From NCBI RefSeq assembly GCF_001898825.1, contig NZ_MKVK01000051.1: DNA of 64,000 nucleotides; one strand, 5' to 3'. The notes below the pieces were generated by a model. It was not told the origin of the DNA. It ran no database searches and saw only the letters and a list, made by a program, of their open reading frames with translations. This document shows, in pieces, positions 14,456-22,215 of the stretch. The translations under genes were made by a program, and so were the position numbers. The first letter of the stretch is position 1. Every line of letters starts with the position of its first letter. This stretch comes from Magnetospirillum sp. 64-120. GTDB taxonomy: Bacteria > Pseudomonadota > Alphaproteobacteria > Rhodospirillales > Magnetospirillaceae.

Positions 14456-15661
14456 ATGCCGGGCCATGCTCTGATCTTGGTCAAAAACGCCATCAGCCCG
14501 CATGACCTGGAACGTCGGGGGATTAATGCGCTGACCGCCATGGGGTTCAGCGTCAACGTTCTCGATCTGGGCAATTTGCTGTCCCCCCAGATACAGCATA
14601 ACCGCAGTCATTATTCCAGCTTGGGGATTCCGATCACGGTGATTTCAAGCTGGCGGACCCTGCATCGGGCCTGGCCACTGTTTCAGCAGGCCGACCTGGC
14701 TTTTTGCTTTATCGCCACTCACCACATGCGCGCGGTAGATATTCCGCTATTTCGTCTTCTTGGACGCAGCCGTACGCCATACGTATTATTCATGAACAAT
14801 ACAGTGCCTGGAATTCTGCCCCATGAATGGCACCAGGGATGGTGGGGGCGCATGCGCGAACGGCTGAACAGGCTTAGGACGATTCGTCCACTGGACACCC
14901 TGGCCTCGCGCATTGCACCGGGCTGGGTCGGCGCGCCTCAAGCTGCCGCCGTGGTTTATGGTGGCGTGTCTTCCGTGGCTCCCAGCCAATTGGTCGGTCC
15001 CGACACCTTGCGCATCAATGCACACACCAACGATTACGACAGCTTGCGCACCCTGCGCGGCCAGCCGCTGGAAGACGACCACAGCGCCGTGTTCATCGAT
15101 CAGTACCTTCCTTTCCACCCTGATTGGGTGGAAAGGCCGGGCACCAACCGCATCGATCCTGATTCCTATTACACCAGCCTGCGTCGCCTGTTCGATCGCA
15201 TCGAGGCCGAATTGGGGCTAAGGGTCGTGATCGCCGCCCATCCCCGCGCCAATTACGCCGACAAGCCCGGCCTGTTCGGTGACCGTCTGGTTGCCAGCGG
15301 ACAAACCACCGAGTTGATACGCCGCAGTTCCCTGGTCATCGGCCATTACAGCTTGGCACTGGGGCAGGCGGTGATCTTCCACAAGCCGGTTCTATTGTTG
15401 CGTAGCGCCAGCTTTGGCGCCTCTTTGCTTTTGCTTGACCATATCACCGAGGCTTATGCCCGCGCATTGGGCACACAGCTAGAGAACATGGACACACCGC
15501 AAGCCATCCCACTGGCCGATCACACCAGCCCCAATGAACAAGCCTATGCTGGCTTTATCCACCAGTGGGTCAAACAGACGGGTAGCCCGGAAGCGCCTTT
15601 GCACGACATCGTCATCGCGGCGATGAGGCGGGCCGGACTGATCCCGGATCAGACGAAGTAA
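14456..15661 (+). CDS. Uncharacterised 401-aa protein; possible GT-B-like (capsule-synthesis / glycerophosphotransferase-like) sugar transferase
   Basis: No recognisable signature. The C-terminal half has VVIAAHPRANY...LVIGHYSLALGQAVIFHKPVLLL. This loosely resembles the HP...S/T-x-x-x-x-A...P pattern of KpsS/TagF-like GT-B proteins. The gene starts 7 nt after the neuB stop. GC is visibly lower than in the upstream operon. Confidence 0.6.
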   Translation: MPGHALILVKNAISPHDLERRGINALTAMGFSVNVLDLGNLLSPQIQHNRSHYSSLGIPITVISSWRTLHRAWPLFQQADLAFCFIATHHMRAVDIPLFRLLGRSRTPYVLFMNNTVPGILPHEWHQGWWGRMRERLNRLRTIRPLDTLASRIAPGWVGAPQAAAVVYGGVSSVAPSQLVGPDTLRINAHTNDYDSLRTLRGQPLEDDHSAVFIDQYLPFHPDWVERPGTNRIDPDSYYTSLRRLFDRIEAELGLRVVIAAHPRANYADKPGLFGDRLVASGQTTELIRRSSLVIGHYSLALGQAVIFHKPVLLLRSASFGASLLLLDHITEAYARALGTQLENMDTPQAIPLADHTSPNEQAYAGFIHQWVKQTGSPEAPLHDIVIAAMRRAGLIPDQTK

Positions 15662-16521
15662 CCGTATTTTTCCATCGGCAGACCATAAAGTTTTTGCAGC
15701 TTTCGGTTTCCGTATTCGTAGTCCCTTAGGACCTTGGCGGCGAATTCAGGCGACAAATCCATTCGCCGCCGCAATGCCTTGGCCGCCAGATCGGCCATCC
15801 CAAGCTTGCGCACCAGCGGTTTGAGGAACCCCAAAGACTGGGGATAGCGCGTCGCCTCGGCATGCGACTCGTTTACTTTTTTCTGGCTTTGGGCGAAGTG
15901 CCGCAGATCTTCACCCATGATGTCGCCAAGGCGCCGGAAATAGGTTTCCGGGTCGTCGCTTAATTCCTCAAGCAGCAATACATCAACCCGATCGGGACCC
16001 AAACGCTCGACAATGCGGAAAAAGTCCAGGGTCTCGAAATATATCATCCCGACCCGCTTGCGCAGTTTTACAGCGCCGGAACCCAAATTTTGAGCAGGAT
16101 AGTCAATAAAAATATCTTCGGGCCGATAAATGAAAGATGGCGCATTATGTTGAAAAATGCTTTGGACCATCAAATCTTGGCGCCGGATTTGCAAAAGAAA
16201 TCGGCCCTCTGTTTCAAATATGCGCCGCAAATTAGTCAAACAATTATGACGATGACTGTATTCAGTGAAGCGAATTTCAGGAGACATGACATAGTCGGAC
16301 AGCCCCTCATGGCTAAAGCAATATCGCTCGCCACGCTTTTGGAAAAAAACCAGATCCTGCGGTAGGTCGTCGAAGCTGTTTTTGGCCAGGATGTCCTCGG
16401 TGCCGTTATCCGCGACATAGGGCATGTTCTGGAGTTTGGGGAAAACGCGTTCCTGAAGAAACGTCGATCCGCATTTGGGTAAACCGATATGGATCACCGG
16501 ACCCCTATTCACACAGGACAT
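15649..16521 (-). CDS. Sulfotransferase-family protein (PAPS-dependent)
   Basis: 290 aa. The 5'-PSB-like motif is IHIGLPKCGSTFLQ and the 3'-PB-like motif is LLQIRRQDLMVQS. A GGAGAG SD lies 6 nt upstream of the ATG. The gene is markedly AT-rich (22/60 GC at 16081-16140). Confidence 0.75.
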   Translation of the reverse strand: MSCVNRGPVIHIGLPKCGSTFLQERVFPKLQNMPYVADNGTEDILAKNSFDDLPQDLVFFQKRGERYCFSHEGLSDYVMSPEIRFTEYSHRHNCLTNLRRIFETEGRFLLQIRRQDLMVQSIFQHNAPSFIYRPEDIFIDYPAQNLGSGAVKLRKRVGMIYFETLDFFRIVERLGPDRVDVLLLEELSDDPETYFRRLGDIMGEDLRHFAQSQKKVNESHAEATRYPQSLGFLKPLVRKLGMADLAAKALRRRMDLSPEFAAKVLRDYEYGNRKLQKLYGLPMEKYGYFV

Positions 16522-20407: not shown

Positions 20408-22215
20408 GAACGTCTCTCCACCTCAGGCATGGATGATTTTTCCACCAAACTCCTGAACATGTCATCACGCCCCAGCAAGTCGCTGAACGTCCCCTGGTCG
20501 CGGATCACACCCTTTTCCATCAAAACCACCGCGTCACAATGGCGTACGGTGGAAAGACGATGGGCGATGACGATCACCGTCTTGATGCCTGACAGGTCGG
20601 CGATCGCCTGGGCGATCTCGTGCTCGGTCTCGGTATCCAGCGCCGAAGTCGCCTCGTCCAGCACCAGCAAACCGGGATCGTCGTAAAGCGCCCGGGCAAT
20701 GCCGATACGCTGGCGCTGTCCACCCGACAGACGGCCGCCATGTTCGCCAACGACGGTGTCCACACCCTGCGGCAATCTGGCGACCAGATCGTCCAACTGG
20801 GCCAACCGACAGGCATTGCGCAGGCGTTCTTCGTCGATGTCGCTATCGGGCACCCCTAGGGCGATGTTTCGCCGCAAGGTGTCGTCGATCAGGTAGATGG
20901 TCTGAGGAATGTAACCGATACCACGTTGCCAGGACGGCAGGTCGGCGGCGATGTCGGCGCCGTCCACCAGAACCTGCCCCGACTGCGGCGGCAGCAATCC
21001 CAAGATCACGTCGGCCAAAGTGGTTTTGCCAGCCCCCGACCGCCCGACCAGCGCCACCGAGCTGCCTTGGGGAATGGTCAAGCTGACATCTTGCAGTGCC
21101 GGTTCCACCGCGCCCGGATAGGAGAAGGACACATGGTCCAAAGTGATGTCGTGACGCCAGGGCCGCGCTTGGACTTCGGACCCGGCCACAGCAACCAATG
21201 TCGACATGGCATGGAAATCCTGGTGGACCAGCGCCACCGATTTCCGACTTTCCCGCATCAGCGCCATATTCGAGATCAAGCGGCTAAGGGACGGCGCCAC
21301 CCGCAGGGCGGCGACGGCGAAAACCCCCAACGACGGCAAAGCCTCGGCCGGCTCGCGCCCCTGCAGCAGGAACATCACCACCACCGTCACCAAACCGATG
21401 GCGGACAGGGTCTCCAACAGCAGACGCGGAACATGCGGCATGGTTTGCGAGTGGACGTCGATATGGGCGCGGCGGCGGCAGTATTCACCGTAAACATCGG
21501 TGAAATAACGGGTGCGTCCGGTCAGTCGCAGCGGCTTGATGGCCCCCAGCGATTGTTGCAGCCACAGCTGGATCTTGCCTTCATACTCGACCTGCTGCTC
21601 GCCCCACATCTGCAAACGTCCCCGCATGGCCCAGGAATAAAGGACCATGACCACGCCCAACAGGCCGGTCACCAGCAAAGTGGCCAAAGGCTCGACCAGC
21701 AGCAACACCAGCAACACGCCAGCGCCGGTGGTGGCTTCCAGCAGCAAGCCCAGGAAAGGGCGCAAACCCTTGGCGAAGGTCACCGACACCAGATGACGGA
21801 TATTGCGGATCAGTTCGGCCGAGTTGCGGGTGGCCAGCGCGGCGAACGGCTGGACCATGACCCGTTCCAGCATGACCTGCGACACATGGGCCACCAGCAT
21901 CATCGAATATCGGTTCTGAATCCAAGACACGGCCAGAAGATAGGCGTTCTTCAGCACGAAAAACACCGCCAAGGCGCCGCAAACCGCCAGCAGGGCCGTA
22001 CGGGAATCACCTTCGAATTGCCGCAACAGCCACGCGCCCATGGGCTTGTCGGCAAACGCCCGGGGTTCGGCCACCATTTGCAGGAACGGCAGCAACAGAC
22101 CCAGACCCGCCATTTCCAGAATGGTGGCGACGAAGGTCAGCGCGAACACGCCTGCCAGACCGATACGGGCCTTGCGGTCGAGAAAAGACAGTATCTGACG
22201 CAGCTGTTCAATCAT
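20404..22215 (-). CDS. ABC exporter, fused TMD-NBD half-transporter (MsbA/PglK-like)
   Basis: In-frame ATG at 22215 gives MIEQLRQILSFLDRKARIGLAGVFALTF.... Six-helix TMD, Walker A GRSGAGKTTLADVILG, signature LSGGQRQRIGIARAL, Walker B LLVLDEATSALD. The tracked 680-aa version (from 22446) adds an implausible leader. Confidence 0.9.
   Translation of the reverse strand: MIEQLRQILSFLDRKARIGLAGVFALTFVATILEMAGLGLLLPFLQMVAEPRAFADKPMGAWLLRQFEGDSRTALLAVCGALAVFFVLKNAYLLAVSWIQNRYSMMLVAHVSQVMLERVMVQPFAALATRNSAELIRNIRHLVSVTFAKGLRPFLGLLLEATTGAGVLLVLLLVEPLATLLVTGLLGVVMVLYSWAMRGRLQMWGEQQVEYEGKIQLWLQQSLGAIKPLRLTGRTRYFTDVYGEYCRRRAHIDVHSQTMPHVPRLLLETLSAIGLVTVVVMFLLQGREPAEALPSLGVFAVAALRVAPSLSRLISNMALMRESRKSVALVHQDFHAMSTLVAVAGSEVQARPWRHDITLDHVSFSYPGAVEPALQDVSLTIPQGSSVALVGRSGAGKTTLADVILGLLPPQSGQVLVDGADIAADLPSWQRGIGYIPQTIYLIDDTLRRNIALGVPDSDIDEERLRNACRLAQLDDLVARLPQGVDTVVGEHGGRLSGGQRQRIGIARALYDDPGLLVLDEATSALDTETEHEIAQAIADLSGIKTVIVIAHRLSTVRHCDAVVLMEKGVIRDQGTFSDLLGRDDMFRSLVEKSSMPEVERRS

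Follow-up and report, generated by a model that had tools for sequence, protein, structure and literature searches.

An ABC exporter, a GT-B-fold protein, a GT-C enzyme and a sulfotransferase encoded side by side in Magnetospirillum sp. 64-120: one system or juxtaposed modules?

Introduction

Do genes that stand side by side in a surface-glycan cluster act in one pathway? The question is raised by a block of four minus-strand genes (15649-22215) in a stretch of 64,000 nucleotides (nt) from Magnetospirillum sp. 64-120 (contig NZ_MKVK01000051.1); the whole stretch is referred to below as the window. The genes encode an ATP-binding cassette (ABC) exporter, a protein of 532 amino acids (aa), a glycosyltransferase (GT) of the GT-C class, and a sulfotransferase. 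An original prediction, made from the sequence alone, combined the four into a single system with the logic of PglK plus PglB and of Arn-type systems. Part of that interpretation is supported, namely the gene identities and the logic of the Arn type; the single four-part system of the PglK plus PglB type is not. By a narrow preference, we read the block as a lineage-specific juxtaposition of three modules in a large, rearranging lipopolysaccharide (LPS) core/O-antigen cluster, carried by a bacterium like Magnetospirillum sp. 64-120. The genes of the block, and the smaller open reading frames (ORFs) and insertion within it, are as follows.

20404-22215, minus strand: ABC exporter gene, 603 aa from an ATG that independent gene callers also use
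18809-20407, minus strand: gene of the 532-aa protein with a predicted GT-B fold
18705-18812, minus strand: 35-codon ORF between the GT-B and GT-C genes, gene status uncertain
16801-18759, minus strand: 652-aa GT-C gene, probable start 18708
16694-16804, minus strand: 36-aa micro-ORF, overlapping the GT-C stop
16557-16689, minus strand: hairpin insertion between the micro-ORF and the sulfotransferase gene
15649-16521, minus strand: 290-aa sulfotransferase gene

Results

Conservation of the block

Homologs number ~384 for the GT-C enzyme and ~441 for the 532-aa protein. The surroundings of the former were compared at 80 genomic loci and those of the latter at 80 metagenomic loci; counts are reported over 75, 80, 84 or 87 loci for the GT-C family and over 81 for the GT-B family. 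Among the sampled contigs, L001-L004 are near-identical to the window, L172 is an 82%-identical relative, and L170 is a 51% relative. The sulfotransferase gene was absent from all 84 GT-C loci and all 81 GT-B loci (0/165 in total); only the window and L172 carry it. The ABC gene occurs in one or two of the 84 GT-C loci and the GT-B gene in eight. Viewed from the other side, 8 of 81 GT-B loci have a GT-C gene of the same family as the window's no more than 10 kb from the GT-B gene. The combination of all four genes into one system, as originally proposed, did not survive this comparison, because the block is not a conserved unit across the 165 related loci.

The ABC and GT-B genes keep company more steadily. 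Homologs of the exporter are present in 16 of the 40 GT-B loci with at least 5 kb of upstream sequence, and in 12 of the 40 they lie upstream of the GT-B gene on the same strand (35-62% identity). The two genes overlap or are adjacent in the window, L090, L098, L170, and L172. Twenty-four GT-B loci are complete on both sides; nine of them contain the ABC gene, eight a GT-C gene of either of two subfamilies, and five both. Overall, a GT-C gene lies within 10 kb of the GT-B gene in about 10-30% of loci. The ABC and GT-B genes recur as a pair, with links to CMP-ulosonic-acid genes; the GT-C joins them only now and then, and the sulfotransferase is private to the lineage.

The second GT-C subfamily is PMT/PMT_2-like (~646 aa, 26% identical to the GT-C of the window). 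Its members lie within 8 kb of the GT-B gene in L092, L094, L098, L100, L134, L138, L168, and L169, often on the opposite strand, and two non-orthologous GT-Cs recur in this manner beside one GT-B family.

Junctions and traces of rearrangement

The four genes are co-directional by their ORF coordinates, as first described. The start and stop codons of the 532-aa and ABC genes overlap in a GTGA at 20407-20404, read from the sequence; 49 nt (18760-18808) separate the 532-aa and GT-C genes, and 279 nt (16522-16800) the GT-C and sulfotransferase genes. With the GT-C start placed at Met18 (18708), the first of these gaps becomes 100 nt, and the 35-codon ORF (MNNLKAGLAQGVPC) exactly joins the GT-B stop to Met18 with ATGA overlaps at both ends. 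This ORF is also called in L172 (9897-10004), where its first ~45 nt are nearly identical to those in the window, and is absent from L170. It may be a gene, a remnant of the junction, or an element with a regulatory role.

In L172 the order is ABC, GT-B, 35-aa ORF, GT-C, 36-aa ORF, and sulfotransferase, followed by the nonulosonate pathway on the same strand. In L170 the order is ABC, GT-B, HpcH, CTP_transf_3, GFO, HAD, GT-C, and a 35-aa micro-ORF, with a Wzy_C gene and a 237-aa GT2 farther on. Genes corresponding to both the L170 insert and the usual surroundings of the GT-C family are found elsewhere in the window, on the plus strand:

33513-33707, plus strand: GT-B relic, a 64-codon ORF with the last 57 residues of a paralogue
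33704-36271, plus strand: HpcH aldolase, CTP_transf_3 cytidylyltransferase, and GFO/IDH/MocA oxidoreductase (Pfam)
38022-43567, plus strand: 2-hydroxyacid dehydrogenase, heparinase II/III-like protein, AsnB, and 314-aa-type GT2 (Pfam)

The last 57 codons of the relic are 51% identical to residues 472-528 of the intact 532-aa protein. The relic lies directly upstream of the HpcH gene, which matches the L170 order, and the HpcH, CTP_transf_3, and GFO genes of the window are 62-71% identical to those that separate GT-B from GT-C in L170. The third group comprises the canonical neighbours of the GT-C family, which flank the GT-C in 33-44 of 80 loci. Its GT2 (42590-43567) is 45% identical to the GT2 upstream of the GT-C in the related locus L007 and, as in L007, is followed by purH. 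We found no second GT-C in the window, including the canonical slot after this GT2, which is filled by a weakly DegT-like ORF of 371 aa (43564-44679, plus strand).

Because the canonical neighbours stand without a GT-C, a GT-B relic is present, and L170 has the order described, we attribute the present adjacency to recent reshuffling. The L170 order is an intermediate, and the GT-C has left the position that is usual for its family, with a GT2 gene on either side. The relic marks the rearrangement.

The GT-C enzyme

The sole Pfam match of the GT-C protein, to PMT_2, is marginal (27.4 bits against a cut-off of 26.1). Many homologs carry PF13231, and NCBI assigns the protein, modelled there with 635 aa, to the GT39/ArnT family. 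Met18 is most likely the true start because it agrees with the family N-terminus, the NCBI model, and the positive-inside rule. A direct search of the 652-aa sequence against the PDB gave nothing useful. The predicted structure (pLDDT 90.7, with 44 homologs) was compared with the PDB by Foldseek, as was the other predicted structure below. The matches were GT-C enzymes only (STT3, ALG9/ALG12, AftA, AglB, ArnT). The best TM-scores, 0.48/0.57, belong to ArnT, with PglB and Pmt lower; the Foldseek probability is 1.0 for the STT3, AglB, and PglB chains. The matched enzymes are transferases, as the original prediction supposed, and no polymerase or ligase of the Wzy/WaaL type was among them. On the evidence of the model, the protein is closest to ArnT, ALG9, and STT3 and is probably an ArnT/PMT_2-like transferase. 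The WWD motif (WWDXG in PglB) is absent from the 652 residues, as is an STT3 Pfam match.

The motif D136-A-D138-S-L-A-Y-H143 follows transmembrane (TM) segment 4, and D136, D138, and H143 are invariant in the 44 homologs. Provided that translation starts at Met18, the positively charged loops 41-48, 96-109, and 207-213, together with the helices of the model, place DADSLAYH in the periplasm by the positive-inside rule. It is predicted to belong to a conserved acidic first large periplasmic loop, as in enzymes of the ArnT/PMT_2 type. A soluble C-terminal domain, originally described as large, is present and modest in size, about 150 aa (residues ~503-652), with C610 and C646 conserved.

Neighbours of the GT-C family in 80 loci include two GT2 genes (66 loci), an epimerase/dehydratase (44), a heparinase II/III-like protein (44), AsnB (33), a C-methyltransferase (23), and a WecA-type GT4 (19). 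A 234-aa GT2 lies directly downstream of the GT-C in 43 of 75 loci and is closest over its full length to dolichol phosphate mannose (Dol-P-Man) synthase and ArnC. Given this partner, the donor of the GT-C would be a single sugar on a polyprenyl monophosphate, unlike that of a PglB-type en bloc transferase. Of the two analogies originally drawn, that with PglB is therefore weak, on account of the ArnC-like partner and the missing WWD motif and STT3 match, and the Arn-type analogy is the better one. No GtrA/SMR/MATE-type flippase was present among the neighbour clusters of the GT-C family, which comprise ORFs of at least 90 aa and do not include a search aimed at GtrA.

A microprotein gene accompanies the GT-C family

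The 279-nt spacer had been described as structured. Strong structure is indeed present, as detailed below, but the spacer is not empty and contains a conserved micro-ORF (16694-16804; MTGKKWVALALSWAVLALVGWLLQFQNLLKPLLASL) of 36 aa with a single TM helix, which independent gene callers also report. The family to which it belongs is 36-40 aa long, with one hydrophobic helix and the motif W..W....(Y/W)L.QF...L..P.L. Between the window and L172 the reading frame is kept with synonymous changes.

A hidden Markov model (HMM) built from 55 examples matches 74 of 87 GT-C loci; 5 of the 13 loci missed lack upstream sequence. In 66 loci the micro-ORF lies directly upstream of the GT-C gene and overlaps its start (for example positions 9879-10001 in L007). 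It lies directly downstream in the window, L172, L079, and L005/L006 (11887-11997 in L005; L005 and L006 represent the same gene). A downstream 35-aa ORF in L170 (11913-12020) has the motif and scores under the HMM threshold. In the control GT-B loci, the HMM matches 7 of 81, and each of these seven has a GT-C ortholog. Among cultivable bacteria, the GT-C and micro-ORF genes occur together in Paramagnetospirillum marisnigri SP-1, Magnetospirillum aberrantis SpK, and Magnetospirillum sp. SS-4, and the ABC and GT-B genes in P. magnetotacticum MS-1. The micro-ORF is a genuine, co-inherited microprotein gene that accompanies the GT-C family; in the clade of the window it has moved from upstream to downstream, where it overlaps the GT-C stop.

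A regulatory leader peptide was considered and rejected, since the amino acid sequence and TM helix are conserved and the ORF is found downstream of the GT-C in five lineages, those of the window's clade included.

The 532-aa protein and the ABC exporter

The 532-aa protein had been labelled unknown. It has no Pfam match, and its match to TIGR04326 (surface carbohydrate biosynthesis protein), for which we found no literature, reaches 46 bits against a cut-off of 250 and covers the C-terminal half only. More than 440 homologs of equal length exist. Neither a direct sequence search nor the family profile retrieved a useful relative from the PDB. The predicted structure (pLDDT 92), in contrast to this label, has the two Rossmann domains of a GT-B fold, and all of its 98 PDB matches at E<=1e-3 are GT-B glycosyltransferases or GT-B-like epimerases, among them WaaB, UDP-GlcNAc 2-epimerases (NeuC-type), macrolide GTs, and WaaA. 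Judged from the model, the protein should be a cytoplasmic GT-B-fold enzyme.

Two residue pairs, D109-P110 and H422-P423, are invariant in the family alignment. His-Pro (HP) and D/E-D/E-G motifs are found in bacterial sialyltransferases (PMC2169525), and His-Pro also in bacterial transferases of sialic and nonulosonic acids (PMC2169525, PMC5420450). H422-P423 of the 532-aa protein may correspond to the first of these motifs; D108-D109 precedes a proline and not the glycine of D/E-D/E-G. The neighbours in 81 GT-B loci are GFO_IDH_MocA (48), CTP_transf_3 (42), SDR (35), and HpcH aldolase (28). Because of the GT-B fold, the invariant His-Pro, and the constant association with a cytidylyltransferase, we infer transfer of a CMP-activated acid, which makes the protein a candidate CMP-ulosonic/nonulosonic acid transferase.

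The exporter is a fused type-IV half-transporter with ABC_membrane at 67-245 and ABC_tran at 374-524 (Pfam). Its closest full-length solved relative among half-transporters is PglK (5c73/6hrc; E 3e-68, residues 22-574 against 21-563). All NCBIfam scores fall below the equivalog cut-offs: 293.5 bits against 602 for MsbA, 283.4 against 725 for HepA, and 263.9 against 1000 for PglK. Pfam, NCBIfam, and PDB matches agree with the MsbA/PglK-type half exporter that had been proposed, and the sequence makes it a candidate PglK/Wzk-like flippase of a lipid-linked glycan.

The sulfotransferase and the hairpin insertion

Direct searches with the 290-aa protein gave no Pfam, NCBIfam, or PDB match, and a word-based homolog search returned only the protein itself and one 87% relative. 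An exhaustive HMMER search yielded 347 remote homologs. The profile of this family matches the PDB sulfotransferase 3rnl at E 3.5e-20 and SULT/TPST chains at E 1e-4 to 1e-3, and 26 of 50 homologs match Sulfotransfer_1/_3. The phosphosulfate-loop P15-K16-C-G-S19-T20 (PKxxST) is present and aligns with the same elements of 3rnl. Among the 50 homologs, R113 and Q115 never vary and S121 rarely does, corresponding to the 3'-phosphate-binding R...S; no TM segment was detected in the protein. The sulfotransferase label of the original prediction is borne out by the family profile and motif residues, which identify a putative, divergent sulfotransferase-fold protein of the type dependent on 3'-phosphoadenosine-5'-phosphosulfate (PAPS). 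The gene is likely a recent acquisition; its GC content is 0.503, against 0.625 for the window. No sulfate-activation gene was present among the window ORFs scanned.

A 40%-identical homolog (P0270, on a JGI contig) adjoins an ATP-sulfurylase fusion gene and genes for MBOAT, radical-SAM, MptE-like (Maf-type), and polysaccharide deacetylase proteins. This neighbourhood suggests that the sulfotransferase subfamily sulfates surface glycans.

Only 172 nt of the spacer (16522-16693) are non-coding. They fold into two long hairpins (-85.2 kcal/mol, z = -8.3). About 133 nt (16557-16689) are missing in L172, where the sulfotransferase gene starts 39 nt past the micro-ORF. The hairpins are long and perfect, and the direct repeat CCACTAG flanks the insertion on both sides. 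The sequence had no Rfam match and is single-copy in the window; the only other copies found were in the near-identical contigs L001-L004. Although real, the structure is a lineage-specific insertion that lies outside any conserved design. It may be an element resembling a miniature inverted-repeat transposable element (MITE) or a repetitive extragenic palindrome (REP), or an acquired terminator.

The surface-glycan setting

The nonulosonate island described originally is present. Plus-strand genes encode a pathway of the legionaminic/neuraminic type, with a UDP-sugar dehydrogenase-like protein, dehydratase, DegT, Epimerase_2, CBS-NTP-transferase, FemAB/GNAT, methyltransferase, and NeuB (Pfam/NCBIfam), and CTP_transf_3 is also among the genes of the island. 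The window further contains extra cytidylyltransferases, GT2s, methyltransferases, and an MBOAT; farther along are an SDR and a DHQ-synthase-like gene, followed by the 2-hydroxyacid dehydrogenase to GT2 group listed above. GT1s, a deacetylase, a second AsnB, a GT9 heptosyltransferase, and a Wzy_C gene lie at the far end:

56041-57030: GT9 heptosyltransferase (Pfam)
59555-60790, plus strand: Wzy_C (O-antigen ligase family) gene (Pfam), 31% identical to the Wzy_C gene of L170

The heptosyltransferase, Wzy_C, GT1/GT2, AsnB, and deacetylase genes together identify the setting as LPS core/O-antigen biosynthesis.

The window holds two genes of the Wzy_C (O-antigen ligase/polymerase) family, that at 59555-60790 and one at 1-585 (minus strand) that is cut by the window edge. 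A 490-aa protein (2728-4200, minus strand) has at least eight hydrophobic segments, matches no Pfam family, and shares 44% identity with a 509-aa protein of L170 (14352-15881). This protein is a candidate for a membrane component of the Wzy/Wzx type in the cluster.

The proteins that flank the block, of 608 aa (22828-24654, minus strand) and 401 aa (14456-15661, plus strand), have no Pfam or NCBIfam family. Weak homologs of the former lie upstream of the ABC gene in 8 of 81 GT-B loci. Paralogy of either protein with the 532-aa protein was ruled out (hhalign probability <2%). Between the 608-aa gene and a divergent hexapeptide-transferase gene, 1.35 kb (24655-26006) of lower GC content (0.55) contain only short or implausible ORFs and are probably a divergent promoter region. 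No known RNA family was found in 14000-26500, and promoter and terminator scans gave background level only.

Discussion

A probable juxtaposition of three modules

The folds, family relationships, neighbourhood statistics, and traces of rearrangement reported above lead us to favour, by a small measure, three modules brought together in one lineage. From them we infer donor and acceptor identities, flipping activity, and the order of steps; a physical complex of GT-C and microprotein would be hypothetical. Cytoplasmic enzymes would build a lipid-linked O-antigen-type glycan. In the first module, the GT-B enzyme would add a CMP-activated ulosonic or nonulosonic acid to it at the cytoplasmic face. 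The third module, the cytoplasmic sulfotransferase, would add sulfate from PAPS to one sugar before export. The PglK/Wzk-like half-transporter, also of the first module, would then flip the glycan to the periplasm, where the Wzy_C-family ligase (59555-60790) may attach it to lipid A-core. The second module, the GT-C with its 36-aa microprotein, would act in the manner of ArnT or Gtr enzymes and decorate the exported glycan, or LPS, with one side-chain sugar taken from a polyprenyl-monophosphate donor.

Several observations weigh against this reading. No ortholog of the Dol-P-Man-synthase/ArnC-like GT2 is present within the 64-kb window, and the GT-C donor is therefore not encoded nearby. The ABC exporter, by its sequence scores, falls under the curated MsbA, HepA, and PglK cut-offs. 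The 490-aa multi-TM protein could open a different route, of the Wzy or Wzx kind. A protein acceptor for the GT-C, as in PMT enzymes, is discussed below; we give it little credence. The genes from ABC through GT-B and the 35-aa ORF to GT-C and the micro-ORF are chained by 4-nt overlaps, and L172 retains the chain, as does L170 with an insert of four genes; this could reflect real functional coupling of ABC, GT-B, GT-C, and microprotein. About a third of the complete GT-B loci contain a GT-C of one of two subfamilies, which hints at more than accidental proximity. The neighbourhood counts themselves come from the best 80 loci per family, with flanks of +/-10 kb and crude ORF calling.

Alternative explanations

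Could the block nevertheless be one integrated pathway, in which the exporter flips a sulfated or nonulosonate-containing glycan on a lipid diphosphate and the GT-C transfers it en bloc to protein or LPS, as in PglK plus PglB? The co-directional genes with their overlapping start and stop codons would fit, as would the retention of the block in L172 and of the order ABC-GT-B...GT-C-micro in L170. PglK is the best solved half-transporter match to the exporter, the best Foldseek E-values of the GT-C model come from STT3/AglB chains, and ABC and a GT-C of either subfamily occur together in 5 of the 24 complete GT-B loci. The TM-scores, however, rank ArnT and ALG9 above PglB, the WWD motif and STT3 match are lacking, and the conserved partner of the GT-C resembles a polyprenyl-monophosphate-sugar synthase. 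En bloc transfer is already provided by the Wzy_C ligase-family gene of the window. With the sulfotransferase in 0/165 related loci and the ABC gene in one or two of 84 GT-C loci, we regard a single pathway as very improbable. A PMT/GT39-type protein O-glycosyltransferase, formed by GT-C and microprotein, supplied with polyprenyl-phosphate sugar by a Ppm1-like GT2 and directed at flagellin, pilin, or S-layer, would fit the PMT_2 match and the GT39 name given by NCBI. The Dol-P-Man-synthase-like partner mirrors the established Ppm1/Pmt logic of actinobacteria. Nonulosonate islands of Magnetospirillum relatives are often linked to flagellin glycosylation, and a close homolog in L005 lies beside flbT, away from polysaccharide genes. 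We nonetheless consider this acceptor quite unlikely: Pmt structures rank 22 and below in Foldseek (TMq 0.23-0.34 against 0.48 for ArnT), the conserved GT-C context is O-antigen-like (WecA-type GT4, GT1, AsnB, heparinase-like, Wzy_C), and the window is an LPS cluster with heptosyltransferase and ligase in which no flagellar gene was seen.

The ABC and GT-B proteins might instead act beyond an O-antigen linked to undecaprenyl diphosphate, either in a KpsMT-style, lipid-anchored ulosonic acid capsule or with the GT-B protein as a NeuC-type epimerase/hydrolase. CMP-Kdo transferases of the KpsC/KpsS type act with ABC exporters and offer a precedent. UDP-GlcNAc 2-epimerases (NeuC) score like true GTs against the 532-aa model, and the position of the exporter under all curated cut-offs is compatible with such a role. 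The nonulosonate pathway of the window already has an Epimerase_2 gene, however, and the GT-B family tracks the cytidylyltransferase, that is, the last activation step, and not the early pathway genes. The exporter is a fused type-IV protein like PglK rather than a KpsM/KpsT pair. Both variants are, in our estimate, unlikely.

Relation to known systems

A PglK homologue, Wzk, serves as O-antigen flippase in Helicobacter (PMC2841628). The exporter of the window shares with PglK and Wzk (Campylobacter N-glycosylation and Helicobacter O-antigen, respectively; PMC2841628) the half-size type-IV architecture and a place inside a surface-glycan cluster, which here also holds a Wzy_C-family ligase gene. 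Unlike PglK, it reaches only 264 bits against the cut-off of 1000, with MsbA and HepA scoring similarly, and its partner is an uncharacterised GT-B family instead of a PglB-type oligosaccharyltransferase (OST).

Periplasmic decoration of O-antigens by GT-C enzymes from polyprenyl-phosphate sugars is an established pathway (PMC11127046). The Gtr systems (GtrA/GtrB/Gtr*; Citrobacter ORF12-15, GT136; PMC11127046) and ArnC/ArnT resemble the second module in having a GT-C with a conserved acidic first periplasmic loop and, in the GT-C family of the window as a whole, an adjoining Dol-P-Man-synthase/ArnC-like GT2 in O-antigen-type loci. In contrast to Gtr systems, the constant companion of this GT-C family is a single-helix microprotein of 36-40 aa, whose small size gives no ground to presume a flippase. 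In the window, unlike Gtr and Arn loci, the GT2 partner is missing over 64 kb and the GT-C stands behind ABC exporter and GT-B genes. Ost4, a very small single-TM subunit, stabilises STT3 in the eukaryotic OST (PMC3687696). Like Ost4, the microprotein is a single-helix membrane protein of about 36 residues genetically tied to a GT-C enzyme (PMC3687696). The comparison goes no further than analogy: the sequences are unrelated, the GT-C subfamily is a different one, and a complex of GT-C and microprotein would be conjectural.

GT-B sialyl- and nonulosonate transferases (PMC2169525; the Tannerella Pse/Leg transferases, PMC5420450) and the Kdo transferase WaaA, itself among the Foldseek matches, share the GT-B fold with the 532-aa family, which has an invariant His-Pro in the C-terminal half that may correspond to theirs, and a consistent link to a CMP-sugar synthetase gene. 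The family differs from them in having no Pfam family and no similarity at the sequence level, even by profile, to any solved structure. It also lacks D/E-D/E-G as such (D108-D109-P110) and has a distinct N-terminal region of ~170 residues. The PAPS-dependent carbohydrate sulfotransferases (3rnl; Sulfotransfer_1/_3; the rhizobial LPS sulfotransferase LpsS) resemble the 290-aa protein in the PKxxST loop, the conserved R...S, and a cytoplasmic location with no TM segment, whereas the latter falls below every Pfam and NCBIfam threshold and has very few close relatives.

Implications

A broader synthesis is possible, and as a whole we hold it only tentatively and consider it doubtful. A widespread Rhodospirillales GT-C family obligately paired with a microprotein, and a new GT-B family coupled to a PglK-like flippase, would have merged in the lineage of the window into one translationally coupled operon with the sulfotransferase. 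By analogy, the microprotein would serve as a subunit like Ost4, or as an adaptor that handles the donor and replaces a GtrA-type third component. The lipid-linked glycan would receive from the GT-B enzyme a CMP-activated ulosonic acid derived through HpcH aldolase, or else a nonulosonate. If this synthesis were true, the resulting O-antigen would be both acidic and sulfated.

The preferred reading, three juxtaposed modules, makes the block an example of module reshuffling in hypervariable LPS loci and not a new glycosylation machine. The new elements are smaller than the block: the pairing of this GT-C with a microprotein, and a GT-B family, as yet uncharacterised, with ties to an ABC flippase. 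Knowledge of the transferases that act on nonulosonic and related acids is still poor (PMC5420450), and the GT-B family, with hundreds of members, no Pfam family, and no solved relative, is a concrete candidate for such a transferase because of its steady linkage to cytidylyltransferase and ABC exporter genes. The microprotein gene accompanies the GT-C in ~85% of loci, a link kept through the switch from upstream to downstream, and its product would be a bacterial counterpart of the tiny OST subunits.

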